Of a stretch of 64,000 nt of DNA, positions 15,379 through 60,670 are shown one piece after another. Position numbers and translations under genes: made by a program. Below the pieces are notes generated by a model, which did not search any database, was not told the DNA's origin, and worked only from the letters and a program-made list of their open reading frames with translations. The stretch covers positions 13,820-77,819 of the IMG/VR virus record IMGVR_UViG_3300010158_000051. The stretch is one strand, 5' to 3'. The stretch comes from a virus. Each line of letters begins with the position of its first letter. Within the stretch, counting starts at the first letter, position 1.

Positions 15379-15428
15379 TATGTAATGTCTGGCTAACTTG
15401 GTATAATTATCAAGACAGTTAGGCAGCC

Positions 15429-35516: not shown

Positions 35517-35582
35517 GCTTGACACAAGCGTGTATAAACTGATACAATAGATTAACACTATACTTACTATTAAAGGAATAAA

Positions 35583-35888: not shown

Positions 35889-36118
35889 TGACAAAGATTG
35901 TATTAAATTATGATAAAGCACATAGTTTTGTAAACAAGAATAAGAAGAATGGCTTCTTCTGGGATGGTTACACCATTGTAAAATGGACACCAGGCTCCAA
36001 CGGTTACATGCAAAAAAATGGCATGTTTCGAAATAATCAATGGGGTTATTCCTCACGATATGAAGTCACTTCCTCTGGCACATGGGAATTAAACGACAAA
36101 TATGCCAGATTTATTTAG
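35888..36118 (+). CDS. Hypothetical protein
   Basis: Operon coupling. Confidence 0.6.
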   Translation: MTKIVLNYDKAHSFVNKNKKNGFFWDGYTIVKWTPGSNGYMQKNGMFRNNQWGYSSRYEVTSSGTWELNDKYARFI

Positions 36119-36428
36119 TCAATTAGGTTTAGATGAGCAAGATGTTAAGTGGTATCACTTAGCAGCATGCAAAGGTATGCCAATTGATTGGTTCTACGAT
36201 AATTATGAAGCAGATAAAGAATTAGCTAAACAAGCTGATCAAGTATGTTTACATTGTCCTGTAATTAAAATGTGTCACGCACAAGGCGTGATTAACAAAG
36301 AAAAAGGAGTTTGGGGCGGGGTCTACATGGACCTTGGAAGACCAGACAAACAACATAATTCACATAAAGATCCTGAGATATGGAAGCAGTTAAAAAAGGC
36401 ACATGGTAAAAATATCGTACACGGTTGA
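36102..36428 (+). CDS. whiB: WhiB-family Fe-S transcription regulator
   Basis: W...AAC...CxxC.....C...GVWGG. Confidence 0.9.
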   Translation: MPDLFSQLGLDEQDVKWYHLAACKGMPIDWFYDNYEADKELAKQADQVCLHCPVIKMCHAQGVINKEKGVWGGVYMDLGRPDKQHNSHKDPEIWKQLKKAHGKNIVHG

Positions 36429-45864: not shown

Positions 45865-46202
45865 CATAATATGCCTATAAAATTGGACAAAATAGGACAA
45901 AATGTACACAAAATAGGGTTATTTTGTCCATATATTGAGATATATTGTGTGAATTTGATCACATTTAATGTATCTCTATTTTTGTATACATTATATGATC
46001 AACATCACACTTTATATGCTTGACTTCCAGCGAAATTTATGCATCTTCGTAATGTCTGCATATTTGAATATACATTTATATAGACATATGTTTCTCCAGG
46101 TATTATTTGGTATGTTCGTAATGTCTGGAAAGTTCCAGCGAAATTCCCGCCCCTTCGTAATGTCTGGATCTGAGCTACGCCTGCTCCTGCGTTTGGAAAT
46201 GC

Positions 46203-46237
46203 GAGAGACCCCCACACCCAACATGTGGAGGTCTCTC
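46203..46237. terminator. Hairpin ending the leftward gene block
   Basis: GAGAGACC-CCCACA...TGTGGA-GGTCTCTC. Confidence 0.5.
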
Positions 46238-46267
46238 TTGGACTTGGCGGAAAAGCCTGAACGCCCG

Positions 46268-46561
46268 TTATGTCAGCATGAACTCATTCATTGGTTCATC
46301 TTTTCTGACCATTCCCGTAAGGCCCAACTCCTCTAAGGAATACTTTAATTGCTTACACATCTGGTGAATTTCTACCAGTGGCATTGGTACCATTTCTTGG
46401 TCAGCCATTAGGATTACATAGTTAACTAAATAACCTAACATGGCCTCATTTACGTAGCGGTTTTCTCTTGTCATTTTAAGTGCAAGAATAGCGGGACTAA
46501 CTCTTTGGTCCGCCAACCCTGCAGTAATCTTGTCATGTAGTTTTTGGTCAACGCTTGCCAT
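46268..46561 (-). CDS. Hypothetical early protein
   Basis: GAGGAG RBS and TAATG coupling. Confidence 0.65.
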   Translation of the reverse strand: MASVDQKLHDKITAGLADQRVSPAILALKMTRENRYVNEAMLGYLVNYVILMADQEMVPMPLVEIHQMCKQLKYSLEELGLTGMVRKDEPMNEFMLT

Positions 46562-46743
46562 TATGGATACTCCTCTTCGAAAGACAATGGTATCATATCA
46601 TCTTCTAACTCGTCAACTCCTAAATCAATAAGTAACTTGGCTATGATGTTATGAGCTGCGATATTCTCAGTCTCGGACCCACCCCATAAAAGCTTTTGGG
46701 CAAGTGCCAACTGACGATTTAGATGCTGATCACTGATCTTCAT
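46561..46743 (-). CDS. Hypothetical early protein
   Basis: Operon coupling. Confidence 0.55.
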   Translation of the reverse strand: MKISDQHLNRQLALAQKLLWGGSETENIAAHNIIAKLLIDLGVDELEDDMIPLSFEEEYP

Positions 46744-47095
46744 CTTCTTCCTCCTCAAGGTCTTCTACGGGGATAACGATATCTCTATCAATCATCCAGT
46801 CCCATATGTGCTCGTCTAGGTCTTCTGTTCCATACTCCAGTGTGAAGCCATTCTTGTCTGCATCTTCCCAGAACATTTTAAATATATCATGCATCTCAAG
46901 GCCAGGCTTGATAACATATTCATCATCAACGTTTTCCAAATGATTCTTGTACTTGTCAACAACTATATCCCAGGTCCATACCCAAACCAGGGACGGGAAT
47001 ACAGGAAGGTCTGTAATCAATGCTGATATAGTCTGTAACTTATCATAGATATCCCACATACGTGTTTCATCTTGTAGATCTAATTCATTATCCAT
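46730..47095 (-). CDS. Acidic hypothetical early protein
   Basis: GAGGAG RBS. Confidence 0.65.
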   Translation of the reverse strand: MDNELDLQDETRMWDIYDKLQTISALITDLPVFPSLVWVWTWDIVVDKYKNHLENVDDEYVIKPGLEMHDIFKMFWEDADKNGFTLEYGTEDLDEHIWDWMIDRDIVIPVEDLEEEEDEDQ

Positions 47096-47175
47096 TTAGC
47101 ACTCCTCACATAGTACATCGCCATAGGGAATAGATTTCCCACATTCACAACACCAGTCTTCATCATACATTCCCA

Positions 47176-47451
47176 TTATCCTTTTGCCTCCCTATCAGCA
47201 ATTGCAAAACTTAGGTCATATGTCATTTTATATAGTGCAGTTAAAGCGTCAAGGAAGCCTTCTGCATATTTTCTTTCAAACCCGTCCATTGCGTCAGAGT
47301 AGTCATTCTCTTCCTCAACTTCAACAGCATTTGAGTACTCTTGCTCCCAGATAAGCATTAGGTTCTTAAGTTCACCGTGCATTATATCTAGTGGGTTAAT
47401 CTTGTAATTAACCAAACGTTGTAAATGTGGTGCCAACTCTTGCTTTTCCAT
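47176..47451 (-). CDS. Hypothetical early protein
   Basis: TAATG coupling. Confidence 0.65.
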   Translation of the reverse strand: MEKQELAPHLQRLVNYKINPLDIMHGELKNLMLIWEQEYSNAVEVEEENDYSDAMDGFERKYAEGFLDALTALYKMTYDLSFAIADREAKG

Positions 47452-48236
47452 TATGATTCTACCTTTCGATATTCAGGGACTTTGGTTTCCAAGTATACAC
47501 TGTGGGTCTGACATTCTGCTACAGCCTCAAGGTCTGCCTCGCCAAGCCAATTGCAGTTACTACAGATTTCACCACATTCATTTTCGCAATAATCTAATGT
47601 ATTATATGAATCACAATCTCTGCATTGATTATCATATTCAACTAGTTCTTTTACATTACCACGAACAATCTCATACTCCCCACCCCAACCTGTCTCTTCC
47701 TCAAATTCTAAAGTAAGCAGGCAGTTAGGAACAAGATTAGATAGTTTAGTTAAGATAGTTACAGCAGGTGACCATGCTGTTTCATATTTGTAGACAAGCC
47801 AGTTATCTTCGCCTTCTGATTTATATTCAAGTAACTCCGTATTTGGATACTCATCTTCATCACGAACGGCTACATCCCATTTGGTTCCCCAATTTGAGTT
47901 GTTCCATGAATACCAGTCTTTTTGAGTTTTTGCATGTGCAACTTCTTGTGCAAACCAATTAGGGTCTTTCATATCTGCCCCAGACCGTGTAGGTTGGCAA
48001 GCATATTCCTCATCTGTAATACCGTCGTCTTTATACGAATGGATATTAAAGAAAGAGAATACAGGATTAGAGTAACTAACCTGTGTAACTTTGGTCGGGA
48101 ATCCAGAAGATGAAATATCACCCATACCATATGTCTCTTGTGCTAATGTAAAAGGTTTATTCAATCTATCCTTAATCATATCAACTTCTGATTTAGGACC
48201 TTGTATAGTTAATGTGTTATATACCCAGTTTGGCAT
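47451..48236 (-). CDS. DUF1281/YubB-like ferredoxin-fold protein with C-terminal Cys cluster
   Basis: 'MPNWVYNTL', 'WYSWNNSNWGTKWD' and 'YETAWSP'. Confidence 0.75.
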   Translation of the reverse strand: MPNWVYNTLTIQGPKSEVDMIKDRLNKPFTLAQETYGMGDISSSGFPTKVTQVSYSNPVFSFFNIHSYKDDGITDEEYACQPTRSGADMKDPNWFAQEVAHAKTQKDWYSWNNSNWGTKWDVAVRDEDEYPNTELLEYKSEGEDNWLVYKYETAWSPAVTILTKLSNLVPNCLLTLEFEEETGWGGEYEIVRGNVKELVEYDNQCRDCDSYNTLDYCENECGEICSNCNWLGEADLEAVAECQTHSVYLETKVPEYRKVES

Positions 48237-48261
48237 TGTTCTTACTTTCTCTTAGTTGGGG

Positions 48262-48450
48262 TTAGTTATCTGAATCTAATTCAGCGATGATTTCATTACA
48301 AGCATAAGCGATTTCGTTGAATACTAAGTCGCCTTCTGCATTTACTGATGATAGGGCTTCAATGTCCATTTGAGTTTGGATAATACCTGCCTCATCTGTG
48401 AGTTCGGGTAGTTCAATGTAGTATTTAGCAGATACATAAAATCCAGCCAT
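48262..48450 (-). CDS. Hypothetical early protein
   Basis: GAAAGGA RBS downstream of a TGTCAG promoter. Confidence 0.65.
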   Translation of the reverse strand: MAGFYVSAKYYIELPELTDEAGIIQTQMDIEALSSVNAEGDLVFNEIAYACNEIIAELDSDN

Positions 48451-48485
48451 TTTGTTTCCTTTCGTTGGTTTATTGTCCTATTGTA

Positions 48486-48728
48486 TCAGAGGGCACTGAC
48501 ATTTTCAATAGCATCTTGCTTAAAGTACCAGCCAAGTGACCTGATTGATAGGTTAATCTCTGATTCAGGATACCTCTTGATCATCCAGTTCAAAGCTTGG
48601 GCGGGATTCCGAAATTCAGCATAGGAACTATGATATAGAGAATCCCTTATATCTAAACCCCACATGTTTATTCCACCTGGGGAACATGAATAATCAATTT
48701 CGTAAAGTTCTGCATTCATAGGGTTCAT
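48486..48728 (-). CDS. Hypothetical early protein (possibly leaderless)
   Basis: TAGACA...TATTAT promoter directly upstream. Confidence 0.55.
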   Translation of the reverse strand: MNPMNAELYEIDYSCSPGGINMWGLDIRDSLYHSSYAEFRNPAQALNWMIKRYPESEINLSIRSLGWYFKQDAIENVSAL

Positions 48729-48906
48729 AATACCATATCGTAAAGGTTACTGTCTAGTAGCATCTCATTATATGAGATATATTTCATGTGATAAATATCA
48801 CGTCTTCATAATCCCGTGATTAAATATACATATCCGTAATGTCCGATTTGTATGCTTTTGTCGGCACGGCTGTGCCCACTTTGTCAAGTGGGACACGCCT
48901 GGCTAT

Positions 48907-49062
48907 TTAATCAAAATATCCTTCTGCCCAAAGCCCATCCAAAAAGCTTTTCACCATGTTTAATCCAATAGTGATTCCTTCTTGTGCAGGTGGAATATAA
49001 AGCTTTGATTGTTCTACCATGTCAGACATGATGTTTAGATCTTCTAAATCATACCCCAACAT
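48907..49062 (-). CDS. Hypothetical early protein
   Basis: AAGGA RBS before ATG 49062. Confidence 0.55.
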   Translation of the reverse strand: MLGYDLEDLNIMSDMVEQSKLYIPPAQEGITIGLNMVKSFLDGLWAEGYFD

Positions 49063-49417
49063 GGTATTCCTTGACTTCCTGTTGGTATTCAATGAATGAA
49101 TCAAACGAGTGCCAATTACCATCATCACAAACTTCTTGTGTGATTAGATTTACTTCTACTGTTGTGTCAAAGTAATCTTGGTCTGCTTTTGCTAAATAGA
49201 TTCCGAAACCAGTTTCCTCGTCCCGTCCCTCTTTAGTTAGTTGGTCTATGATGTTGCGAAGTGCGTATGATGTATCACCAATGTTTAGCCGCTTGCTTGC
49301 GAATAACAAAGCGTGTGCCAAATCTTCACGCCAAGAAGTTTCGCCCCAATGTGAATACAGCACAATGTTTGGAAGTTCCTCATCTGTCTTGAATACGAAA
49401 TTGACTCGTGCTCCCAT
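49049..49417 (-). CDS. Conserved phage hypothetical protein ('MGAR...LYSHWG')
   Basis: Recognisable phage motif. TAATG coupling. Confidence 0.65.
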   Translation of the reverse strand: MGARVNFVFKTDEELPNIVLYSHWGETSWREDLAHALLFASKRLNIGDTSYALRNIIDQLTKEGRDEETGFGIYLAKADQDYFDTTVEVNLITQEVCDDGNWHSFDSFIEYQQEVKEYHVGV

Positions 49418-49485
49418 TACATTACACCCCCGATTGCGATTAGAATTGCGATTGCGATTACGCCTAGAATTATGAAGTTTGTCAT
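49417..49485 (-). CDS. 22-aa hydrophobic peptide MTNFIILGVIAIAILIAIGGVM
   Basis: Directly after a TTGACT-N17-TAGGAT promoter. Its stop overlaps the next ATG (TAATG). Confidence 0.55.
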   Translation of the reverse strand: MTNFIILGVIAIAILIAIGGVM

Positions 49486-49504
49486 TTGCCTATCCTATCA
49501 GATT

Positions 49505-49535
49505 GGGGGTGGGGAGTCAATGACCCCCCACCCAA
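49505..49535 (-). terminator. GC-rich hairpin overlapping the next promoter
   Basis: TGGGGGTGGGGAGTCA-A-TGACCCCCCACCCA. Confidence 0.55.
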
Positions 49536-49549
49536 GAGAAGTTATCTAA

Positions 49550-49966
49550 TTAGAGATACTTAGCAATCTGCTTCATAGTGGAAGCATTTACTGTTTCCTC
49601 ATCTGTCATACGCAAGATAGAGAGGGCATTGTTAATTTCCTCTACAATTTCATTGTATGTGTGTTGGTGCATTGTTGTAAAATCACGCTGTGGCTCTGCT
49701 GGGAACTCAGTTTCTTTTACAATCAAATCAAAATCAACATTAAGAGTGTTGTTCCAAGAACGATAGTTTGTGCGGAAGTTTTCAGCCTTCTTGATGTTAG
49801 CGATAGCAAACTCGCCAACTTCCTTACGCCATTTTTCCCGTGACTTTTCATACTTGGCTTCATTTGCTGATTGTTCAGCATAGTCCTTTTTGATTGTTAC
49901 CAACTTTGTTTCCAAAGCCTTGATTACCTTTGGTGTTGCTACCTTTACTGTGATTGCTCTACTCAT
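49550..49966 (-). CDS. Hypothetical early protein
   Basis: AAAGGA RBS and own TGTCAG promoter. Confidence 0.7.
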   Translation of the reverse strand: MSRAITVKVATPKVIKALETKLVTIKKDYAEQSANEAKYEKSREKWRKEVGEFAIANIKKAENFRTNYRSWNNTLNVDFDLIVKETEFPAEPQRDFTTMHQHTYNEIVEEINNALSILRMTDEETVNASTMKQIAKYL

Positions 49967-50117
49967 TTTTTTCCTTTGTTAGTTGGGTTGGAGGTTTTAT
50001 TATACCAGAGGGGTCTGACATAAACTTAGGTGCTAGTTCTTACTTACGACATTGGGCTAGAACTCTAGCAAACTGCCCCTGTTTCGTTATCCCCTATTAT
50101 AGCGTAGGGGTCTGACA

Positions 50118-50345
50118 TTATGCCTCGTATTTGGGCATACCTACCCTGACTTCTTTGTGATTTACAGCACTTAGGATTTTACCCCCAAAGGCTGCAATAA
50201 TCTTTGCCAGTTTTATTTCATCTGCACAGGTGATCTCAACCTGCATATTTTCTAGCATCTCATATTCAATGCCATAGTTCAAGCATTTGCTCAAACCATT
50301 AGACATACGAGCTTTTGACGGGACTTCAACTATTGCAACAGCCAT
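50118..50345 (-). CDS. Hypothetical early protein
   Basis: TAATG coupling. Confidence 0.6.
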   Translation of the reverse strand: MAVAIVEVPSKARMSNGLSKCLNYGIEYEMLENMQVEITCADEIKLAKIIAAFGGKILSAVNHKEVRVGMPKYEA

Positions 50346-50947
50346 TAGTATGCACCTTCTTCTACTCTATCAACATCATAGTCATTGACGCTAATCTCTG
50401 AACCAAAAGAGTCAATAGTTAGGTTATTGCGAACCATATCTTCAATGTCATAGTCGCCGTCTGCCATATCAACTTCAATAGTCATATCAACACGAACCCA
50501 AGCGGTTACTTCAATTTCCTTAGTTAGTGGAACATCAAAGATTTCTGCAATTTGTGAAAGTGTATCTTGCTCTGATGAGTCTGCATAAACTTCTTCAAGC
50601 AAAGTGCGTAGTTGGCTTTCTTTACGATAGTATTCGTTCATTTTTGTTTGATAAGATTTATCACGATAAACCAAAGCACGAACATCTGACTCTGTATAAG
50701 TTTCTGTTCGCTCAACATCATTTTCAGTCCAGTTGAGAGTCATTGTTTGAGGTGCGGTTGTTGTTTCCATAATTTGTTCTTCTTTCTTTTCGGTTGGGTA
50801 TATTGTAGCATCTAGGACTGACAAAAGTGTTAGGTCGCCCTGACACTCAAAACAGTTTTTATCTCTAAGTGTATTTGATTTAGTTGTAATTTCAATTAGT
50901 GCATCACAAATTGAACACACATAATCTTTTTTATACCAGTTAGTCAT
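50345..50947 (-). CDS. Hypothetical protein with N-terminal CxxC..CxxC and a probable internal start at 50770
   Basis: Leaderless ATG after the 50954 promoter. Internal promoter at 50802 and a purine-rich RBS before METTT. Confidence 0.6.
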   Translation of the reverse strand: MTNWYKKDYVCSICDALIEITTKSNTLRDKNCFECQGDLTLLSVLDATIYPTEKKEEQIMETTTAPQTMTLNWTENDVERTETYTESDVRALVYRDKSYQTKMNEYYRKESQLRTLLEEVYADSSEQDTLSQIAEIFDVPLTKEIEVTAWVRVDMTIEVDMADGDYDIEDMVRNNLTIDSFGSEISVNDYDVDRVEEGAY

Positions 50948-51047
50948 ATCGCAATTATAGCGTATAGGACTGACATAGTTCTACTTACCCGTCAGTAGTT
51001 CCAGTATTTGAGACGCTCCCGTAATGTGATAATGGTCACGTAATGGG

Positions 51048-51069
51048 CGACACGCCCGACTGCGTCGGC
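51048..51069. repeat. Dispersed 21-22 bp GC-rich element CGACACGCCCGACTGCGTCGGC
   Basis: Copies at 51048, 52441, 53821, 55247 and 56013. GACACGCC-only copies at 48892, 53760, 57396 and 57714 (reverse). Confidence 0.9.
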
Positions 51070-51073
51070 CCGC

Positions 51074-51107
51074 TGCATATTTATGCATTGCAATGCATAT
51101 TTATAAA
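51074..51107. promoter_or_regulatory. Tandem ARG (ArgR) boxes
   Basis: TGCATATTTATGCA-N6-TGCATATTTATAAA with 20-bp period. Second pair at 56055-56088. Confidence 0.6.
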
Positions 51108-51119
51108 TTAGAAGCTTTG

Positions 51120-51193
51120 CGATTCCAACGGGACTTGAACCCGCAACCTCTACCGTGACAGGGTAGCGATCTAACCAATTGATCTATGGAATC
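51120..51193 (-). tRNA. tRNA-Asp(GTC)
   Basis: GATTCCA/TGGAATC acceptor, CTACC-ctGTCac-GGTAG, GGTTCAAGTCC. Confidence 0.92.
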
Positions 51194-51197
51194 TTGC

Positions 51198-51224
51198 GAG
51201 CAGTTTTAATTCTTGCTCAGGAAT
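51198..51224 (-). ncRNA. Pseudoknot motif, copy 2
   Basis: ATTC-CTGAGCAA-GAAT-TAAAAC-TGCTC. Confidence 0.65.
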
Positions 51225-51230
51225 ATTTTT

Positions 51231-52280
51231 TTAATTTGTAAGAGCGAGAACTTGCTTTACAATTTTATTTTTTTCTGCTGTAACAACTGGGTCAAATCCA
51301 CTTGCACCAGCCATTAGTGAATCGCCATTACCCTTGCGAGCAGTGCGATAGTAATCAAGGCGTTCTGTGAGTGCATTTACAACACCCCACGCTGTGCCCT
51401 TGATATTTGCATTGGTAGGTGAGTTATGATACAACTCATCAACAAGGAGAACTTTATTCTCCCATTTCTTGATTGAACCCTTAGCGTCCTTTTCAGGCTT
51501 AGCATAAATTGAGTTTACAATCTTTGAGAACTGAGCGTTAGTTACCTCACGAGAGAATAATTCTTTCGCCTGTAACTCAAACTCGTCCATGTAAGCAAAA
51601 GTAAGACCAAGAGCCTCACGAGCAGCAGCAATTTTTCCATCTACTGTTTGCGTGTGGCGAATCTTGAAAGATTGCTTAGCCTTTTTCATTGCAAGGTTGA
51701 GAGTGTTTTGGCACATAACACGAACTGGAGTGATTGCAGATTGAACCGCAACTGAACCATCGTGTGAAGTCCAAACGATGAGATAAAGTTTTGTCTCATC
51801 TGCTGCACCATTAGGGTCAAGAATCATAGTGCGGGGAATTGACATTGAGCCATAGACCACACGACCACTCTTTAGAGAACCCGCAGATTCCCAAACTACA
51901 TCAGGATTTCCATCATGAATATTATCTGCAAACGCAAACAAATCTTCATTCTGAACTGTTTTGTAGCGTGAGCCTACAACTGAGAGAACATCTTTTTGTC
52001 CTGCTGTTGTTGGATTATCACGAACTACAAGATAGTTATCTGAAACTGTTGTGTAGTTAGGTTGTAGCAAATCTGAAACAGATTCTAATTGCACATTCCA
52101 ATTAGAGAGATTAGCACCCTGCAACATTTGTGCTGTTGTAACAGCCTCATCTTGCGTGAATACTTTATTGGCGAAAGAGTGCCAAGCGGGATTAGTGCGA
52201 AGATTTACTGCAAGCGTTGCAGAACCATCGTTGATTTCGGATTGGTGAGCAAGATTGCCCACAGGTGATTGAACTGACAT
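51231..52280 (-). CDS. DUF932 (TIGR03299-like phage/plasmid) protein
   Basis: 'PAWH', 'YKTVQNED.F', 'SHDGS....ITPVRVMCQNTL' and 'GTAWG..NA.TE..D'. Confidence 0.88.
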   Translation of the reverse strand: MSVQSPVGNLAHQSEINDGSATLAVNLRTNPAWHSFANKVFTQDEAVTTAQMLQGANLSNWNVQLESVSDLLQPNYTTVSDNYLVVRDNPTTAGQKDVLSVVGSRYKTVQNEDLFAFADNIHDGNPDVVWESAGSLKSGRVVYGSMSIPRTMILDPNGAADETKLYLIVWTSHDGSVAVQSAITPVRVMCQNTLNLAMKKAKQSFKIRHTQTVDGKIAAAREALGLTFAYMDEFELQAKELFSREVTNAQFSKIVNSIYAKPEKDAKGSIKKWENKVLLVDELYHNSPTNANIKGTAWGVVNALTERLDYYRTARKGNGDSLMAGASGFDPVVTAEKNKIVKQVLALTN

Positions 52281-52421
52281 AGGTTTTTCCTTCTTTCTAT
52301 TTGATTGTTAGACTTATTATAACAGGGGGCACTGACATTTGTCCATTTTGAATCGTAAGATAACTAAACATTTGTCCATAATGTCCAAATTTGACAGTGT
52401 GAGAAATCTCACACGTAATAG

Positions 52422-52430
52422 TTATCCACA
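52422..52430 (+). promoter_or_regulatory. DnaA box TTATCCACA (second copy TGTGGATAA at 55966-55974)
   Basis: Perfect 9-mers, both inside intergenic hubs. Confidence 0.55.
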
Positions 52431-52734
52431 CGTAATACACAGACACGCCCGACTGCGTCGGCATTTTTTTGCGGAAATGTCAAGGCAACACGCCGTATTT
52501 ATTTATGAAATACAAAATAAAAAATAGATAGCACTACAGCGATGGCCCCATACACCAATACATACGCTGCAATGCTATCCATTTTATTTTACCCCTCTTT
52601 AAATAAACTCCGTTAGATCTCGATCAGAAATTTCATTTACGTCAACACCTTCAGATTCAGCTATAGCTTCCCATAGGTCCTCTTCAGTAAAGTCACCGTC
52701 AGGATGCCATTCGGCCAATACTTCAAATAAACCT

Positions 52735-53028
52735 TTACTCATAGTCTTCACCTGCAAAGTCATCTTGACACCATGCATCTAAGTGATGCGATTCAATTAA
52801 TGCCCATGCTGGAGCACTATTTTTTCCACGCCAAGATACGCCTTCAGGCAATTCAATTAAACGCTCCTGGCTATCTTCCCAATATGCGTCAATTGCATCT
52901 ATGCAAGGTTGCACCATAGAGTACGGGACGGGTGGGTAATGGTTACCTCGCAAGTGCATTGCAATTGCAGATTCCATATCTAGGCCCAAGGTACCATCCG
53001 CTAATTCATTTGCTAGGTTGCTTCCCAT
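52735..53028 (-). CDS. Conserved actinophage-type hypothetical protein ('HLRGNHYPPVP')
   Basis: Operon packing. Confidence 0.7.
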   Translation of the reverse strand: MGSNLANELADGTLGLDMESAIAMHLRGNHYPPVPYSMVQPCIDAIDAYWEDSQERLIELPEGVSWRGKNSAPAWALIESHHLDAWCQDDFAGEDYE

Positions 53029-53030
53029 TA

Positions 53031-53294
53031 TTAATTACCTGCCAATTCAATAACGGCGTGAGAGCCATCTGCGTTGATACGATATAGTTCTTGTGCAATT
53101 TCCTCACGAGATAAGCCTTTACCTATCAAGTCAAGCACTGCGGATTTATTCATTGCAATAAACGCACCTTCGGGGAGCATTGCAATTCTTGGCATGAAGG
53201 GAGAAGTTGGAGAAACTTTAGAAATAAACTTTACGCCATCCACTTCAAATGGAAAAGAATTCCAGCCAGTTGTGTTTAGTTCATGCATTTTCAT
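53031..53294 (-). CDS. Hypothetical early protein
   Basis: TAATG coupling. Confidence 0.6.
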   Translation of the reverse strand: MKMHELNTTGWNSFPFEVDGVKFISKVSPTSPFMPRIAMLPEGAFIAMNKSAVLDLIGKGLSREEIAQELYRINADGSHAVIELAGN

Positions 53295-53581
53295 TAGTTA
53301 TTTTCACTTTCTACTTGTTGGGTAATTGTATCAAATTCACGGATTTCGTCTGCAATATTAGACATAAGTTGCTCACCTAGGCAAGCATATGCAACGGTTG
53401 TAGCGGTCATAGCGGAGAGAGTTGCAGAATACCGAAACATTAGTTCTGCAATATGATTTAGTTTGCTGAAGTCACCTTCACACAATTCCATTGCCATATC
53501 ACGGGCTGACGACATTACTTCATCTGAAGTAAGGGCTTCGGCTGAAGCCTGCTGGATTTTCATTGCAGTTGCAATAGACAT
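53294..53581 (-). CDS. Hypothetical early protein
   Basis: GAGG RBS and TAATG coupling. Confidence 0.65.
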   Translation of the reverse strand: MSIATAMKIQQASAEALTSDEVMSSARDMAMELCEGDFSKLNHIAELMFRYSATLSAMTATTVAYACLGEQLMSNIADEIREFDTITQQVESENN

Positions 53582-53697
53582 TAGTTTGCCTCTTTCTTGT
53601 TGGGAGTTGTAATTGTAGCAGATAGCACTGACATTGCTTCCACTGTTGATTGCTTGCGTGTCTCTTCGACATGCTTCTTGAATTCATCTAAGTTCAT
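53581..53697 (-). CDS. 38-aa early peptide containing an internal promoter
   Basis: GAAAGG RBS before ATG 53697. Confidence 0.55.
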   Translation of the reverse strand: MNLDEFKKHVEETRKQSTVEAMSVLSATITTPNKKEAN

Positions 53698-54106
53698 GAG
53701 TTTACCTTTCTTGTTGTTGATAATGGAAGTATAGCAGGTTAGACTGACATATTCAACACGACACGCCGTAATTCTCACGTAATGAGACACGTAATCATGT
53801 GACAAATCTCACACGTAATGCGACACGCCCGACTGCGTCGGCCCGTGTCCGTTATGTCCAAATTATTTACGCATAAAAACGCAAATTTTAGATCAGCTAT
53901 TCAAATTTATTTTTATATTTGCGTTTGCGATTATATTTTTTCTTTGACGGAATTGCAGTCGCAGCATTACTGCGACGCAACTCTTGAATTCGCTTTACTT
54001 TTTCCATAATTTTATTCCTCACACTTGCCACAGTAGCAATTTCCTAATTCTTTATTATTGCACTCCTCTTTAGTTAGTGCAGGTTCCCATTTACGCATTA
54101 CATCGC

Positions 54107-54316
54107 TCATCGCTCTACGACCCTTCTGCCTTCACGATAAAAAATTTTGGTATAGCATTTACCTGACGGGGTGTAGAGATTTACAGTAGAATACTTATCT
54201 GCAAATCCCCAGTCAATAAACTTTGCAAACTCTTTGTGTGCTTGCAATTCATCTGAGTATTGTCCTGACCAATAAGGTGAGGTCTGCTCATCATAGGTTA
54301 CTGTAATTTTATACAT
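54107..54316 (-). CDS. Hypothetical early protein
   Basis: GAGG RBS. Confidence 0.6.
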   Translation of the reverse strand: MYKITVTYDEQTSPYWSGQYSDELQAHKEFAKFIDWGFADKYSTVNLYTPSGKCYTKIFYREGRRVVER

Positions 54317-54318
54317 TG

Positions 54319-54504
54319 TTAAGCCTCGCTTCCTGAAAATAATTGGTGGTATTCCGCAACCTCATCAGCGGGAATGTTGTAAGGGTTGCAATCGCAATAA
54401 TCAAAATCATAGTCGCCGTCTGGAGATACCCAGCCAGTTACGCCTTGACCATAGCAATCTGAGCAATTTACGATTTGCTCTAACGCATTTTTTATATTTG
54501 ACAT
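54319..54504 (-). CDS. Small Cys-containing early protein
   Basis: CxxCxGxG...CxC with GAAAGGA RBS. Confidence 0.6.
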   Translation of the reverse strand: MSNIKNALEQIVNCSDCYGQGVTGWVSPDGDYDFDYCDCNPYNIPADEVAEYHQLFSGSEA

Positions 54505-54612
54505 TTAGTTGTCCTTTCTTGTCTGACATTTACATTTTGTTATTTCTATTGTATCACCTGCCACTGACACAGTGGCAAGCGTATCACAATTAGAACAGAT
54601 AAAGATTTCCAT
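54505..54612 (-). CDS. 35-aa Cys peptide (not in ORF track)
   Basis: MEIFICSNCDTLATVSVAGDTIEITKCKCQTRKDN, TAATG-coupled. Confidence 0.5.
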   Translation of the reverse strand: MEIFICSNCDTLATVSVAGDTIEITKCKCQTRKDN

Positions 54613-54845
54613 TAGTTATCTTCAATCTGAACGCAAATTGTTGCGTAAAAATCTGAACCCCAAGTAGAAACTTTTTCGGGATTATAAGTTGGTCGGACTC
54701 TTACAGTATAAGCCTGAAAGTTTGAGCCATACCATACATTATCACGCTTTTCTGCGGATTGGATTATTCCATCTCTATGTCGCCCTAGTGAGCGATAGTA
54801 TTTACCTTCTAATAAGGTTTCTATGTCGTATTTATAAGTTGCCAT
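54612..54845 (-). CDS. Hypothetical early protein (small beta-barrel-like)
   Basis: AAAGGAAG RBS and own TGTCAG promoter. Confidence 0.65.
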   Translation of the reverse strand: MATYKYDIETLLEGKYYRSLGRHRDGIIQSAEKRDNVWYGSNFQAYTVRVRPTYNPEKVSTWGSDFYATICVQIEDN

Positions 54846-56037
54846 TTTAGCACTTCCTTTTCTTTTTTGTTATGCGATTATTGTATCAGAGGGGTCTGAC
54901 ATTTTGGGGGATTTAGAGGGTGTGTCTAAATTATTTATTTGTGATTTATCTCACATTAGAGGCAATTTATGCAATTGCACCCTTTAGATGAGAATAGATA
55001 CTTTAGCAATTCCTTGCGAGTATAAGCGTCTAATCCATAAGACGATTTAACACCACCATTGTGGTATTCGTGGACTATTGTTGAGAATAGTGTTTCATTT
55101 AGTGTAGTCATTTTGACCACCTTTCTTTATTTTCTAATACTGGAAGTATAACAGATAAAACCGCTACTGTCTAGTATACTGGGTAGTAGTCTCACTATTT
55201 GGAGCGTGAACTTTGTGAGAAAAATCACATCTTACGTAAGCGTGTGCGACACGCCCGAGTGCGTCGGCATTTTTTTGCAGCTGTTACACTGCAAAAATTT
55301 TATTTGAAATCTTTAAAAATTTCTTCAACAATTTTTAATTGCTCATCATTAAGATGATCCAATTGAATTGCATCTGCAAAACCAAAAATATCTTTTTCCA
55401 TTATTCAACCTCTTTCCATTCAAAACAATAAGAATCTGAAACAAAATTATTTTTTATTACATTGTCAAAAATTGATAACGCTTGGTCATCATTTTCTGCA
55501 TCAATGTCTAACCAAACACCAAATGTGTATTTTTTCATTAGAGGGCTCCCTCTTGAAATAAACCAATTTCAATGTCTAGCATTTCAGCGGGAGTGGCTTC
55601 GGATAAATCTACCCAACCAGCACCCTCTTCATTTATACGAAAAATTTCAATGTAACCCATTATTTTACCCACTCACTTATTTCATAGTAGGACATAAATT
55701 CTGCAAGAGTCATTAGACCCTTGTATTCATTACAGGATACGCAGAAATTTTCATTAGCGTATTGTGAACAGAAACAGCAAACAATTTTATTTGCATACTC
55801 TACAGGGAGAGTGTTTAGTGTAAATGTAGTCATTTTAGACCACCTTTCTTTAGAGGATTTCTTTACCTCTTGTTTTTCTTTATACTGTAATTATAGCAGG
55901 GGGGTCTGACATTTACTGACGGGTAACTATGACAAATCGGACATTTCAAAATGTGACTTACATCATGTGGATAACTTGAGCGTAAAATTTAATGTGACTT
56001 AAGTCATGTGGACGACACGCCGTCAGCGTCGGCACTT

Positions 56038-56053
56038 TCGAACAAACGTTCGA
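56038..56053. promoter_or_regulatory. Actinobacterial LexA (SOS) box
   Basis: TCGAAC-AAAC-GTTCGA, a perfect match to TCGAAC-N4-GTTCGA. Confidence 0.8.
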
Positions 56054-56090
56054 ATGCATATTTATTCATGATCGTGAATAAAAAAGCTGC

Positions 56091-56118
56091 GAGCAGTTTT
56101 ATAACTTACTCAGGTTAT
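56091..56118 (-). ncRNA. Pseudoknot motif, copy 3
   Basis: ATAAC-CTGAGTAA-GTTAT-AAAAC-TGCTC. Confidence 0.65.
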
Positions 56119-56123
56119 TTTTT

Positions 56124-56306
56124 TTATTCGTGTTTTAGATTTTTGTAGACTTCTTCGTGAAATCTATCGCTATCAAATTTCTCGTTATCATCTGCGAACA
56201 TCTGAGAAAAATCATAGACTAAATCTTCGAATACTTGTTGCGGAATTTCATCACCATAAGAGTTTAGAATTTCTGCTGTTGCTACATAGTCTTTGCGTGT
56301 CATCAT
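56124..56306 (-). CDS. Conserved small phage protein ('MTRKDY...A......F..DN..FD..RF')
   Basis: AAAGGA RBS and a widespread phage motif. Confidence 0.75.
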   Translation of the reverse strand: MMTRKDYVATAEILNSYGDEIPQQVFEDLVYDFSQMFADDNEKFDSDRFHEEVYKNLKHE

Positions 56307-56332
56307 TTTTTTATGTGTCCTTTTCTTTTTAG

Positions 56333-56503
56333 TTACTTGCTTGTTTTTACCATAGCAAAACGGCGAGAGCCATTTGCTAAAACTAAACTAACGCGAGTTA
56401 CCTTATTAGAAATCGGGGAGAAAGAAGCGATACGACCTGTAACGCCTGTCTTGCTAGTAGTGAAGAGGTCTCCGATTTGGTATGTGTATCCTGATAGTGT
56501 CAT
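56333..56503 (-). CDS. Small SH3/KOW-like protein, paralog B (not in ORF track)
   Basis: MTLSGYTYQIGDLFTTSKTGVTGRIASF..., with AAAGGA RBS. Confidence 0.7.
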   Translation of the reverse strand: MTLSGYTYQIGDLFTTSKTGVTGRIASFSPISNKVTRVSLVLANGSRRFAMVKTSK

Positions 56504-56540
56504 TCTGTTATGTCCTTTTCTTTTTGTTGGGTTTTGTGTT

Positions 56541-56569
56541 GAGCAGTTTTAATAGACTTGCTCAGGTCT
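56541..56569 (-). ncRNA. Pseudoknot motif, copy 4
   Basis: AGAC-CTGAGCAA-GTCT-ATTAAAAC-TGCTC. Confidence 0.65.
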
Positions 56570-56589
56570 TTTAGCGTATTTCGCTAAGG

Positions 56590-56751
56590 TTAGATTGTTA
56601 CTGTGGTGAAACGCTCTTCGCCATCAACATCAAGAAGCACTACTGTGCGGTTTGCGTCTTTTGGCTCGATTGCTTTGATGACTCCAGTAATTCCGCTCTT
56701 CTGTGTTGTGAAGAGGTCGCCTACTTGGTATGTCTTATTTGCTACTGTCAT
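56590..56751 (-). CDS. Small SH3/KOW-like protein, paralog A (not in ORF track)
   Basis: MTVANKTYQVGDLFTTQKSGITGVIKAIE..., with AAAGGA RBS and own promoter. Confidence 0.7.
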   Translation of the reverse strand: MTVANKTYQVGDLFTTQKSGITGVIKAIEPKDANRTVVLLDVDGEERFTTVTI

Positions 56752-56819
56752 TTTTTTGTCCTTTTCTTTTAGGTGGTGATTTTCCTAGTATAGCACTAGG
56801 GTCTGACATTTTGTCAAAT

Positions 56820-56966
56820 TTAGAGGATTTCGTCTGGGTCGAAATCGGGGGTCGCTATGAATGAGAATTCATCTGAGTTCTCTTCTTCCCAAATGTCGTT
56901 CTGTTCTGAAATGAAATCGAGGGGGGATAGAGTAGAGGTTCTTTCCCAAGAGTAAGTGTATGACAT
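56820..56966 (-). CDS. Small acidic early peptide
   Basis: TAATG-coupled to an upstream 35-aa TM peptide (56966-57073). Confidence 0.5.
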   Translation of the reverse strand: MSYTYSWERTSTLSPLDFISEQNDIWEEENSDEFSFIATPDFDPDEIL

Positions 56967-57065
56967 TAGTTTAGTCCATTCTTTTTGAGGTCTTGATAGA
57001 TAGCATAGCATAGGGGTATGACAACACCCAAGAGGGCTAGTTGCACTAGGGTAGTAATTATTCTA

Positions 57066-57227
57066 TTAGTCATTTATTTCTACCTTTCGCAAGTGTGCCA
57101 CTACATTTTTAGAAACCTTTTGTAGTTCGGCTACTGTCTTATTCATCTCATCAGCACTAGACGCTATGAATCCTACACCTAGTAGTGTAGCACCATCCCA
57201 TAGTGAGTATTCTATTTTCATTTTCAT
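57066..57227 (-). CDS. 53-aa early protein (not in ORF track)
   Basis: MKMKIEYSLWDGATLLGVGF..., downstream of the 57364 promoter. Confidence 0.55.
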   Translation of the reverse strand: MKMKIEYSLWDGATLLGVGFIASSADEMNKTVAELQKVSKNVVAHLRKVEIND

Positions 57228-57420
57228 TCTTTATCTTCTTTCTGTTAGATTCTTTTTTGTTGCTTAGGATTATTTGCCCTATTGCTAGGGGCTCACCTAA
57301 GATTTTTCTACTGGCAGGGATTTTGCCTATTTACTTTTTCTACCCTTATTTAGTTATGTCGCTAGTATAGCAGGGGGGTCTGACAAATAGGGGGCGACAC
57401 GCCCTATGTGTCTATGTGAT

Positions 57421-57624
57421 TTAGCTCACACGATTAGCGAATACCCATTGGGACTCGCTAGGGGTTAGATAGCGGTGAGAGATAAGACCCTCAGAGGCTA
57501 CTAGATGGACATACGCCATACGGCTAATGTAGTTACCATTAGCAAGGCGGAAGATGGAATTAGACTTAGTATTACTACTAGCCATAGGATGAGTAGGTTC
57601 TACTACTACTGTTAGTGAGTTCAT
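57421..57624 (-). CDS. Hypothetical protein, first gene of the leftward block
   Basis: GAAAGGAG RBS before ATG 57624. Confidence 0.65.
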   Translation of the reverse strand: MNSLTVVVEPTHPMASSNTKSNSIFRLANGNYISRMAYVHLVASEGLISHRYLTPSESQWVFANRVS

Positions 57625-58175
57625 TAGAACTCCTTTCTTTATCAAGAACCTTTCTTGATTTTCTTTATAGTAGAATACTAGCACACTAAATTGGAAAAAT
57701 CAAGTCTAAACACGGCGTGTCGCAAAAAATTTATGTGATCTACCCCACATATGGGTGCAAAATGTTCGATTTGACCGTTATGTGCGGACTATTTTTTTTC
57801 AAAAAAGGTTTTTGAAAATGGAATCATACAAATTAAAATTCCATTAACATTTTGATCAAAAGTAAAATACTCATTAGTAACATAGCTATGGACAAAAATG
57901 GCGGGAACTGCTAGAATTGAGCTATGAGAATAGTTATATGTGATATTTGTAAGAAAGAAATCGAGTCTAGATCTAAATTTGCTCACATGACACTCTTAAA
58001 TCACTTAAAAGAGCATAAAAATGTGACTTAGATCACATATATGTTAAACTAGTTTATTATGAATACTTTTATAGCAGCAGTTGGAGTTGTAATTATTATC
58101 CTTATGACATTTTCTAACTTTATAGATCACTAAATATGTGATTTATGTCACACTTATAAACTCTAAACCTAAACT

Positions 58176-58421
58176 TTACTCTTCAGATTTGGTATTTTGC
58201 TCATCTTCAAATATAAAAGAAGGCGGGGGAGCAAGGACTTGTCCTTGTTGGTGCTTAAATAACATAGAATCAACATCAGCACCTAGCTTCTCACCAATCA
58301 AAGCTAACATATCATAATTTCGCTGGGATTGAATAAACATTGCACCAGATAACTCTCTTAAATTCTCTAGAATTTCTAAGATAGCGTCAGTATTGCCTAA
58401 TTCTTCGCCTAAATTACCCAT
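58176..58421 (-). CDS. Hypothetical protein
   Basis: AGGAG RBS. Confidence 0.65.
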   Translation of the reverse strand: MGNLGEELGNTDAILEILENLRELSGAMFIQSQRNYDMLALIGEKLGADVDSMLFKHQQGQVLAPPPSFIFEDEQNTKSEE

Positions 58422-58656
58422 TATCTATTTCTCCTATGATCTCTTTGGTTATATGGTCCCATTTATTGCCTTCCATTCCCGCCGAATGGTTTATTACTAA
58501 ATCTCCGTCATCGTTGGTCATTGTATAAAGCCATTTTGCGGGGCTTACAGGGCTCTTTGCGACGATTATATCATTACAGCTAAGCTCTATACTAAAATTA
58601 TCTACATCGTCGTCGTGAGCCTCTATGTAGGCTCTTTCTATACTAATTTTTGCCAT
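58414..58656 (-). CDS. Hypothetical protein
   Basis: Operon packing. Confidence 0.6.
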   Translation of the reverse strand: MAKISIERAYIEAHDDDVDNFSIELSCNDIIVAKSPVSPAKWLYTMTNDDGDLVINHSAGMEGNKWDHITKEIIGEIDNG

Positions 58657-58659
58657 ATG

Positions 58660-58902
58660 CTAATCCATTTTTTCGGGCTCACTCATTTCCGCCCTTATAA
58701 TTTCAATTAAATTATTATATAAAGTGGAGCCAGCGGTATTTTTATACCCGCATGCAAAACAGTGTAGCACGATTTTTTCTTCTTCCTGCTGATGGCTCAA
58801 TGGGAAGATCGCTTCTTCATTTTGGTGCATAGGACAGGCGAGGAAGTTTACCCTCCCCGCCTGTGCTAATTGTAAGTATTCTGAAAAGACTTGTATTCGC
58901 AT
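58660..58902 (-). CDS. Small zinc-binding protein
   Basis: CPMH...CFAC with TAATG coupling. Confidence 0.6.
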   Translation of the reverse strand: MRIQVFSEYLQLAQAGRVNFLACPMHQNEEAIFPLSHQQEEEKIVLHCFACGYKNTAGSTLYNNLIEIIRAEMSEPEKMD

Positions 58903-59591
58903 TATGCGGTCACTAAGTTAGCCCTATTTAAAACAGAATTTACATATTGCCGAACAGTAGGATTTCCTGGAACTGGTTTGTTCCAAGTGCTCTTATTTCC
59001 TGCTCGGGAGGGCAATAGGTGTGCTGCAATTGCTTTTTCCCAGTCATGGTACTTATTGTAAGTAGCGTTCAATTCCAAAATTATCTTTTGATCTTGAACC
59101 CATTCTGGGGCATGGCAAGCATCCTTGTAGCCTTTATAGTTATTCCATGTTGAAGGCATGTATTGGTACGCACCACATGCTGAACTGGATCTGGACTTGC
59201 GATAATACGCTCCCGCTCCACCTGTTTCAGTGGATTTAAGTGCATTTGCTAGTCTTGAGATTATTACCCGCTTGTCTACTCTTGTTGTTTTTAGATTTAG
59301 CTCGTGGCTATAATCGGGCATTAAAAAAGTGCTTCTAGAAGATAAATCATTAATTAAATAAAGAGTTTTATGCATTCTTTTATTTAATATATTATTATAA
59401 TCTATATTAATTATATCTTTTATATTAACTAAATTATTATATTTATTAATATATAATATATTTTTATTATACACTATTGCTTCCTTCATTGCAGCGTGTG
59501 CTTGTTGATCCACACCAAAAATTAGTGTGAGAATCATCACACATATCATTGTCCACGCTGTCCTTATCCTTGCTTTGTTCTCATTGTTCAT
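58902..59591 (-). CDS. Exported lytic transglycosylase (SLT-like)
   Basis: Signal peptide (AHA-A) and 'ETGG....Y...SSACGAYQYMPSTW'. Confidence 0.8.
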   Translation of the reverse strand: MNNENKARIRTAWTMICVMILTLIFGVDQQAHAAMKEAIVYNKNILYINKYNNLVNIKDIINIDYNNILNKRMHKTLYLINDLSSRSTFLMPDYSHELNLKTTRVDKRVIISRLANALKSTETGGAGAYYRKSRSSSACGAYQYMPSTWNNYKGYKDACHAPEWVQDQKIILELNATYNKYHDWEKAIAAHLLPSRAGNKSTWNKPVPGNPTVRQYVNSVLNRANLVTA

Positions 59592-59668
59592 TTTGAACCT
59601 CCTGGGGTAAGAGTAGTAATATCCAGTCTATCATGATATACTAAGAAAAACAACCCGAAAAGAGTGTT

Positions 59669-60670
59669 ATGCAAGTCTCATTTACTGGTGCTCCAGAATT
59701 TATGGATCGTAGCGTAGGTTACGGAGAAGCATCTAATCATATATTTAATTCATTTAACAAGCTGGGCATAGAATGTGTTGTTAAATCAAGAGAACCAAAT
59801 ATTGGTATTTCTTTTATTCAACCAACTAGTTATACATTTGCTAAAGATCAATACAAAATTGGTTATACACCTTGGGAGTCTACAGAATTACTTTGGGGAT
59901 GGGCAACTCCATTGAACCAAGTAATTGATGAACTCTGGGTAACATCCGAATGGAATGCAGAAATTTTTTCTAAGCACACTAACAAACCAATATTTATTTA
60001 TGAACACGGTATTGATGATAGTTGGATTCCTAAGAAACGTGAACTCAATAAATCCCGCCCTTTTAGATTTTTGCATGTAGGCGAACCCTCATTTAGAAAA
60101 GACGGGCAGATGGTTGTAGATGCTTTTATTGCAACGTATGGAGACAATCCAGATTACGAGCTAATTTTAAAATGCAGTAGATTAAACACTACAAGAGTTT
60201 ATGACCCTATTACTGGAGAAATTTCTGGAAGCCCAAGTGCTTTTTATAAAAATATTAAAATTATTGAATCAGAATTAAGTGTAGAGCAGATGAACGGTCT
60301 TTATGACATGTGCGATGTTTTTCTTTATCCATCTTGGGGTGAAGGTTTTGGTTTTAATCCATTACAAGCAATGGCATCTGGCATTCCAACAATATGCACA
60401 GCAGGTTGGGCAACATATTCAAGATACATAACAATGCCGTTAGATTCTAAATGGTGGGACTCACCTTGGCAATCTACGCATCCAGGATTAATGTTAAAAC
60501 CAGATTATGCACAATTAAAAGATTGCATGCAACAAATTACAAAAGATTACAAAAGATACGCAGATTTAGCTTACAAAAATGCTTTCTTAATTCATAAAGA
60601 TTACAACTGGGAAAAAGTGTCTAAACCTGCAGTTGAGAGATTGAAAAAAATACAAAAAGACCATTTTTAA
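59669..60670 (+). CDS. Glycosyltransferase family 4 (GT-B)
   Basis: 'YTPWEST', 'RKDG' and 'PSWGEGFGFNPLQAMASGIPTI'. Confidence 0.88.
   Translation: MQVSFTGAPEFMDRSVGYGEASNHIFNSFNKLGIECVVKSREPNIGISFIQPTSYTFAKDQYKIGYTPWESTELLWGWATPLNQVIDELWVTSEWNAEIFSKHTNKPIFIYEHGIDDSWIPKKRELNKSRPFRFLHVGEPSFRKDGQMVVDAFIATYGDNPDYELILKCSRLNTTRVYDPITGEISGSPSAFYKNIKIIESELSVEQMNGLYDMCDVFLYPSWGEGFGFNPLQAMASGIPTICTAGWATYSRYITMPLDSKWWDSPWQSTHPGLMLKPDYAQLKDCMQQITKDYKRYADLAYKNAFLIHKDYNWEKVSKPAVERLKKIQKDHF

Follow-up and report, generated by a model that had tools for sequence, protein, structure and literature searches.

The stretch analysed here, 64 kb of a lake-phage genome (bases 13820-77819 of the 77.8-kb IMG/VR contig IMGVR_UViG_3300010158_000051, judged 72% complete; hereafter the window, with positions counted from its first base), contains an array of promoters with the architecture of the actinobacterial DNA-damage activator PafBC. 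The element, TGTCAG-N10-TAYAMT, has 14 exact matches in the window, which span 47492-57385 and share the minus strand. These sites are placed as promoters, are kept throughout a family of related phages, and agree both with the PafBC motif as published and with the promoters that precede recA in the likely hosts. The reading that we favour, with a probability of roughly 0.6, is that the phage would be hijacking host PafBC sigma adaptation at the 14 sites; judged from sequence, a virus has here probably adopted a promoter architecture already known from bacterial hosts.

The promoter array and its conservation

All 14 copies listed in an initial annotation of this DNA proved exact, in position and in strand, and dinucleotide-preserving shuffles, which set the chance level, average 0.08 matches to the same pattern and never give more than 1. 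Relaxing the pattern to TGTCRG-N10-TANNNT adds only two isolated sites in the window (25704 and 26299), and a one-mismatch search picks out a likely degenerate 15th copy inside the array (Table 1). Another one-mismatch site, TGTCTG-N10-TATAAT at 15386-15407 on the opposite (plus) strand, lies ahead of the primase operon; it is probably a chance occurrence, since this variant is rare in the family (1 of 612). At 12 of the 14 array sites a purine-rich ribosome-binding site (RBS) and the ATG of a minus-strand open reading frame (ORF) follow 29-56 nt downstream.

Eleven of the 14 sites have a TGN-extended -10, and three are without TGN. The annotated absence of a canonical -35 holds for the sites as a class: sigma-70-type -35/-10 matches across 46000-59800 are at chance level (43, vs 44.2 +/- 6.9 expected), and the family matrix described below is flat upstream of TGTCAG except for AA at the two adjoining bases. 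It does not hold for three individual sites (48480, 52316 and 53728), at which a -35-like hexamer happens to be present. Elsewhere the phage uses other promoters, much as the annotation had it: plus-strand replication and structural genes outside the block have bare TGNTATAAT promoters and occasionally a full TTGACA-N17/18, and the genes at 58176-59591 and 57421-57624 have canonical or bare extended -10 promoters, not TGTCAG. Set against these bare extended -10 and -35/-10 promoters, the TGTCAG sites form a distinct promoter class.

Relatives were gathered with the DUF932 protein of the block as bait, giving 80 viral loci (98% down to 55% identity), of which the 78 low-GC loci are used for all family counts. 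In these, TGTC[AG]G-N10-TAnnnT occurs 970 times on the gene strand vs 6 on the opposite one, with an RBS-like motif and a start codon 20-40 nt downstream at most sites; the matrix from 749 unique sites reads AA-TGTCAG-T-(G/C)-(C/G)-N4-TG-N-TAyAAT. For an unbiased test of spacing, only the extended -10 served as anchor and the upstream sequence was left unconstrained (612 unique same-strand sites). TGTC(A/G)G then lies at exactly N10 in 367 of the 612, and at N8, 9, 11 or 12 in none; for TGTCAG alone the figures are 337 unique sites and 0, so that the 10-nt spacing annotated as invariant in the window is, among spacings of 8-12 nt, the only one seen in the family. Variation in the hexamer is similarly restricted: 30 of 34 one-mismatch variants of TGTCAG are A-to-G at position 5, and each other position varies at most once.

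Copy number is 14-19 per phage genome. Five relatives reach 93-100% completeness, one of them having terminal repeats, and in each the copies sit in one 7-10 kb single-strand block. Two loci, L236 and L257, are divergent relatives of the family: they have 16 and 11 copies, yet of ~90 candidate ORFs in each just 6-7 have a counterpart in the family (33-58% identity). Since they keep the motif and share few ORFs, the gene content behind the promoters changes while the promoters themselves stay. The motif is missing from the two most distant relatives (L088 and L089, 50% GC).

Correspondence with PafBC promoters and candidate hosts

PafBC is activated by binding of single-stranded DNA (ssDNA) to its WYL domains (PMC11804915). 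Its in vivo consensus, tGTCgg(N10)tA(N3)T, has a SigA -10 as its 3' part and no -35; the helix-turn-helix (HTH) of PafB contacts positions -23 to -28, the "-26 element", where R46 and R50 read two guanines of the near-invariant GTC, and the complex binds a single asymmetric 6-bp site (PMC8635444). In the window TGTCRG lies at -28 to -23 of a sigma A -10 in 14 of 14 sites, the 10 nt between element and TAnnnT are those of the PafBC class, no -35 is conserved (matrix flat upstream, block matches at chance), and a near-invariant GTC with purine tolerance at position 5 fits the PafBC profile. The initial annotation's assignment to the PafBC class therefore agrees with the published -26 element in sequence, spacing, position and tolerance.

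The same comparison extends to the PafBC promoters (RecA-NDp or recA P1-type) of Mycobacterium and other Actinobacteria (PMC8635444, PMC11804915, PMC6789036), which share with the phage sites TGTCRG at -28 to -23, N10 and a sigma A TAnnnT, a single asymmetric site, A or G at position 5 and no conserved -35, and whose host recA representatives have the spacer preferences of the phage. The differences lie in deployment and in sequence detail: the phage sites are packed 14-19 to ~10 kb and stand ahead of ORFans, not repair genes; their -10, compared with the TACCTT of host recA, is near-consensus and mostly TGN-extended, with AA just upstream of the element; and their leaders are mostly 30-55 nt with an RBS, while many host PafBC sites are leaderless.

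That the host is an actinobacterium is indicated by a WhiB-family gene in the phage (Table 1); WhiB is confined to Actinobacteriota and serves as an actinophage marker (PMC10202952). An ESM Atlas look-up of the phage WhiB returned only viral WhiB clusters. The contig (~37% GC) also encodes PolIII-alpha, DnaB, primase, RecA, ribonucleotide reductase, GroES, six tRNAs and a Cas4-like nuclease; no lysogeny gene was seen in its annotated ORFs, the contig being incomplete and the annotation partial. Its closest cultured phages, distant relatives, are Streptomyces phages of the family Stanwilliamsviridae (BillNye, Bmoc and others), with PolIII-alpha 54-57% identical, WhiB ~50%, the same genome size class and the same SSB-PolIII-RecA synteny, the gene for SSB (single-stranded-DNA-binding protein) being annotated just upstream of PolIII-alpha in the Streptomyces relatives. 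They differ in host, soil Streptomyces and not lake bacteria, and are without the TGTCRG-N10 promoter class. Inheritance of the motif from Stanwilliamsviridae is ruled out, BillNye having 0 matches and Bmoc 3, which is chance level.

Candidate hosts were sought in an even sample of 301 genomes of Actinomycetes, the class that holds a freshwater "Aquiluna" metagenome-assembled genome (MAG). A recA gene was found in 289 of the 301, a tally that is the only one to include 8 unpublished genomes, and 60 recA loci were examined; TGTC-N12-TAnnnT lies upstream of recA in 57 of these. Of the 60 loci, 13 belong to genomes that are each a single contig of 1.3-1.5 Mb, and larger regions of two such genomes have 44-48% GC. 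We read these streamlined genomes as acI/Nanopelagicales-like, because their size and GC content fit published "Ca. Nanopelagicales" (acI; Planktophila host GC 46.5%; PMC10202952). In 11 of the 13 the recA element is TGTCAG-N10-TAnnnT, and in 9 of the 13 the promoter reads TGTCAG-(T/A)GGCnCC-TGn-TACCTT, with a TGN that is missing in high-GC genomes.

The correspondence extends to the spacer. The 57 recA promoters were scored with the phage matrix over the ten spacer positions only, positions that had been free in every search, and the nine streamlined promoters took ranks 1-9. They scored 6.5-9.8 bits, where the phage sites have a median of 6.6 and random sequence averages about -8, with its 99th percentile near 4; some phage copies are identical to a host recA promoter over all 16 bases before the -10 hexamer. 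There is also a shared dichotomy at positions 7-8, where the choice of TG or AC in the phages is non-independent (TG observed 382 times, 282 expected; AC 151 and 62; AG 11 and 90) and recurs in actinobacterial recA promoters. The commonest 4-mers are ACCC, TGGT and TGGC in the phages and TGGC and ACCC in the actinobacterial recA promoters. TGTCAG itself, with A at position 5, is ruled out as a peculiarity of lake hosts, some large high-GC genomes using it too; the lineage-specific features are the spacer and the TGN.

The initial annotation had recommended looking for pafBC in candidate hosts, and it is there: tandem WYL genes of ~310-340 aa are present in 5 of 5 streamlined genomes tested. 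In one of them (G095) the locus runs pafB (WYL+WCX), pafC (HTH_PafC+WYL), tatC, DEAD/DSHCT helicase, an order that presumably matches the pafB-pafC-tatA-tatC-helY region of M. tuberculosis. Compared with the RNAP-PafBC complex 7P5X (RNAP, RNA polymerase), the PafB of this genome aligns with the PafB chain over almost all of its length (E = 3e-32) and keeps the R-MFE-R-DK stretch with the equivalents of R46 and R50, the guanine-reading arginines. The freely varying spacer of the phage sites thus matches the recA promoters of a lineage that encodes orthologous PafBC, and we infer that the host belongs to it. Mycobacterium and Corynebacterium, which the annotation had named for reporter assays, are ruled out as natural hosts by GC content, habitat and promoter match: the phage comes from a lake and has 37% GC, and its promoters fit streamlined 44-48% GC actinobacteria best.

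PafBC dependence of the motif has been demonstrated in mycobacteria only (PMC8635444, PMC11804915), and for the candidate hosts it is deduced from orthology. Some other host factor, an HTH regulator or an alternative sigma, might accordingly read the -26 element in the phage and also at the host recA and island promoters (see below), which in this lineage would then not belong to PafBC. We regard this as highly improbable: the candidate-host PafB retains its DNA-reading arginines, the recA motif runs unbroken through the class, in high-GC mycobacteria-like genomes as in streamlined ones, and the -10 is of sigma A type, with a 10-nt spacer that cannot put sigma region 4 on the element.

Other routes to the host were less informative. 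Phage RecA, used as bait in the genome collection, found only mis-binned phage contigs in MAGs of unrelated phyla, and phage GroES was rejected as a host discriminator, being 31-35% identical to all five representative genomes. Contigs of the lake-phage family (L090-L100) are binned in MAGs labelled Bacteroidia, cyanobacterium, Beijerinckiaceae, Methylococcus, Flavobacterium, Bifidobacterium and Aquiluna, which is mis-binning of viral contigs in public genome collections.

Position 5 of the element varies between phages. TGTCGG in place of TGTCAG is concentrated in certain loci (L047, 9 of 9 sites; L043, 6 of 6; L083, 10 of 16; L035, 7 of 11) and absent from 46 of the 78 family loci (L010-L087). 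Streamlined genomes also differ at recA, with TGTCAG in eleven and TGTCGG in G118, G069 and G301. The A/G split in the phages may reflect adaptation to host sub-lineages.

In a candidate host genome, exact sites number ~10 per 1.4 Mb (control 5-8), fewer than in one phage genome. TGTCAG-N10-TAnnnT sites cluster in a 10-kb island, four in L135 (G265:C1:418500-432500) and five in L136 (G095:C1:449000-462500), mostly 6-7 nt before an ORF start and so leaderless. The genes behind them encode an N6/N4 DNA methylase, a C5 DNA methylase, an HATPase_c_3 protein, trypsin-like peptidases and unknown products, which suggests that the putative PafBC-type regulon of these bacteria includes a defence-looking or mobile island. 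The candidate-host carD also lies behind such a site, TGTCAGTG...TGGTAGAAT, in L137 (G095:C1:100200-103200).

A host activator, a phage factor or an operator?

In the mechanism that we infer, from PafBC binding through ssDNA dependence to the timing of expression, housekeeping host RNAP-sigma A would bind the TAYAMT hexamer, usually TGN-extended, as its -10, and the PafB HTH would contact TGTCAG as the -26 element. PafBC, wedged between sigma region 4 and the DNA, would replace the missing -35 contact; once loaded with ssDNA it would bridge sigma region 4 to TGTCAG and open the promoters. The ssDNA could come from processed phage ends, from host nuclease attack, or from phage replication or recombination, and the block of small ORFans would fire once it appeared in the infected cell. 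The block would thereby be expressed as an early or delayed-early class coupled to the alarm, and extended -10 promoters that need no activator would serve the rest of the genome.

Several points weigh against this mechanism. The host was deduced from WhiB, lake habitat, low GC content and, with some circularity, from the promoter match itself. The main weakness is in the -10 elements, which are near-consensus and mostly TGN-extended and might fire without an activator, TGTCAG having another role; PafBC-independent basal activity is plausible because they are much nearer consensus than the TACCTT of host recA. Both the phage -10 hexamer and the AA before TGTCAG differ from the host recA promoters. 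In a scan of the viral collection for unrelated multi-copy carriers, every such locus shared proteins with the family; and because Stanwilliamsviridae infect PafBC-bearing Streptomyces yet are without the motif, the trait is lineage-specific, not a general strategy. The first gene of the block, moreover, is behind a canonical promoter, and one of the ~35 uncharacterised ORFans could be a small activator.

A phage-encoded activator was the alternative proposed in the initial annotation. Worked out further, a small phage factor of no recognisable family, encoded by the canonical-promoter genes with which the block begins or by genes elsewhere, would read TGTCAG at -26 and recruit or remodel sigma A in the manner of T4 MotA/AsiA, the likeness to PafBC being convergence. 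A two-step cascade is conceivable because the first block gene (57421-57624) lies behind a canonical promoter; the genes at 58176-59591 are also on non-TGTCAG promoters. The motif is confined to this phage clade, being absent in Stanwilliamsviridae and in L088/L089, and there are dozens of unassigned ORFans in which a factor might hide. All the same, we consider it unlikely, as no conserved or recognisable candidate emerged. WYL, Sigma70_r2 and Sigma70_r4 have no match in the contig, and WYL, Sigma70_r2 and HTH_PafC none in five relatives at least 93% complete, where the only traces are sub-threshold r4_2-like (HTH-like) matches in two tiny non-conserved ORFs in two of the five. Host PafB and PafC, run by tblastn against the contig and ~1.4 Mb of family loci, gave nothing better than E = 8, and among 30 block proteins tested no DNA-binding protein and no transcription-factor or sigma-binding domain is recognisable. 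The annotation's alternative is thus left unsupported by the contig and the five relatives, which have no WYL, PafB/C-like or sigma gene. Convergence of an unrelated protein on the core, the exact N10, the purine at position 5 and the host-lineage spacer would also be improbable, and the divergent relatives keep the motif although nearly all the genes that follow it have been replaced. A phage-encoded sigma factor likewise finds no support, regions 2 and 4 being absent in the contig and region 2 in the five relatives.

A further possibility, suggested by the near-consensus -10 and the TGN at 11 of 14 sites, is that these are self-sufficient extended -10 promoters, bare extended -10 elements being apparently enough elsewhere in the genome. 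TGTCAG would then be an operator, for a phage or host repressor that turns early genes off or for inactive PafBC occluding the promoter, or the sites would be PafBC decoys that titrate the activator: with 14-19 sites per phage vs ~10 per 1.4 Mb host, titration is arithmetically plausible after replication. We find this distinctly improbable. The three sites without TGN would need help, strict N10 phasing exceeds what an operator needs and suits a component of the initiation complex, and a single asymmetric 6-bp site is atypical for repressors, yet is PafBC's binding mode (PMC8635444).

Activation by host PafBC is therefore the reading that we retain. It could be extended to a scenario that, taken as a whole, we put forward as quite unlikely: host PafBC would run both recA and the defence-type island (methylases, HATPase_c_3, trypsin-like peptidases); the 14-19 PafBC promoters of the phage would fire ORFan, possibly counter-defence, genes on ssDNA from nuclease attack or replication, and would later soak up PafBC, starving the host's alarm regulon; and the A or G at position 5 would track the PafB variant of the host sub-lineage.

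The gene block, related systems and implications

The block served by these promoters consists of ~35 small minus-strand genes (Table 1). Nearly all of its proteins are without a family match. The exceptions are a DUF1281_C-like protein (47451-48236) and DUF932 (51231-52280), whose gene alone is widely conserved. When the block was compared by megablast with 50,697 phage records, there was no match. A tRNA-Asp gene (51119-51193, minus strand) lies inside it, between two TGTCAG-driven units. One ORF, 50345-50947, could give two protein forms, a leaderless full form and a nested form from the ATG at 50770.

Table 1. Positions of the TGTCAG promoters and associated features in the window
Feature	Position	Strand	Details
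TGTCAG-N10-TATACT promoter, most upstream of array	57364-57385	-	136-nt leader to ORF 57066-57227
Likely degenerate 15th copy, TGTCAT-N10-TATGCT	57002-57023	-	one-mismatch search
TGTCAG promoter	56787-56808	-	35-nt leader to ORF 56590-56751 (53 aa)
TGTCAG promoter	55890-55911	-	56-nt leader to ORF 55660-55833 (57 aa)
TGTCAG promoter	54880-54901	-	34-nt leader to ORF 54612-54845 (77 aa)
TGTCAG promoter	54548-54569	-	43-nt leader to ORF 54319-54504 (61 aa)
TGTCAG promoter	53728-53749	-	30-nt leader to ~38-aa ORF, start 53697
TGTCAG promoter	53612-53633	-	30-nt leader to ORF 53294-53581 (95 aa)
TGTCAG promoter	52316-52337	-	35-nt leader to DUF932 gene 51231-52280 (349 aa)
TGTCAG promoter, leaderless geometry	50954-50975	-	ATG 6 nt past -10 hexamer; ORF 50345-50947 (200 aa)
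TGTCAG promoter within ORF 50345-50947	50802-50823	-	31-nt leader with RBS to in-frame ATG 50770
TGTCAG promoter, tandem partner	50096-50117	-	97 nt upstream of promoter 49999-50020
TGTCAG promoter	49999-50020	-	32-nt leader to ORF 49550-49966 (138 aa)
TGTCAG promoter	48480-48501	-	29-nt leader to ORF 48262-48450 (62 aa)
TGTCAG promoter, most downstream	47492-47513	-	40-nt leader to ORF 47176-47451 (91 aa)
Block of ~35 small genes served by TGTCAG promoters	46268-57385	-	nearly all without family match
Canonical-type promoter TTGATT-N17-(TGc)TAGTAT	57675-57703	-	read by eye; precedes first gene of leftward block, 57421-57624 (67 aa)
WhiB-family gene	36102-36428	+	marker placing phage on actinobacterial host

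Further elements lie in and beside the block. A terminator-like hairpin, GGGCG-TGT-CGCCC (57392-57404, minus strand), lies directly upstream of the first TGTCAG promoter, and its GACACGCC core recurs in the block. The window has 10 perfect CRP/GlxR-type palindromes, TGTGA-N6-TCACA, between 45849 and 59541 (shuffles predict 0.12), all of them in the leftward block and its flanks; those at 52398, 53798, 54940 and 57415 precede the transcript starts inferred for TGTCAG promoters by ~65-97 nt, and the palindromes may be a second host-regulator input.

Upstream of the array, the 80-aa protein at 58660-58902 has a DnaG-type CHC2 zinc ribbon. The neighbouring 229-aa protein (58902-59591, minus strand) has a signal-peptide-like N-terminus, and a very AT-rich low-complexity insert of Asn, Ile and Tyr. 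Neither Pfam nor PHROG gives a match for it, although its C-terminal part, on inspection by eye, looks like lytic transglycosylase motifs. The strongest canonical promoter of the window, a perfect TTGACA-N18-(TGa)TACAAT in the region 35510-36428, precedes an operon of GroES (35583-35888), a 76-aa ORF and WhiB.

Phages and bacteria offer partial parallels to the proposed arrangement. T4 middle promoters, under MotA/AsiA, likewise combine a -10 with an activator box at about -30 that replaces the -35, and serve a temporal class of phage genes; T4, in contrast, encodes both factors and remodels sigma region 4, whereas the lake phage has no detectable factor of its own and its box equals the site of a host activator. 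Temperate phages wired to LexA (SOS boxes, GIL01; PMC6182141) also read the damage state of the host through a host regulator, but by derepression of a few promoters at the lysis-lysogeny switch; in the lake phage, a large one, an entire gene block would be under positive control. BrxR and CapW, so far as they are described where cited (PMC11804915), are WYL regulators that sense nucleic-acid signals in phage-host conflict, but they are dedicated local repressors or regulators of single systems and are not used by the phage itself. A literature search on PafBC and phages found no description of phage promoters of PafBC/RecA-NDp type; the nearest item, as it is cited, is a report that PafBC influences mycobacteriophage resistance.

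PafBC sigma adaptation has so far been known only as a DNA-damage mechanism of mycobacterial hosts. If the reading given here is correct, a whole family of abundant lake phages would rest a gene block on this promoter type, the first case found in which a virus uses a borrowed WYL-domain ssDNA sensor to activate genes of its own. It would also provide a mechanistic handle on early transcription in phages of acI/Nanopelagicales, uncultured or barely cultured bacteria that are among the most abundant in freshwater, and the promoter match itself would serve as a host-prediction signal for hosts without CRISPR (PMC10202952).

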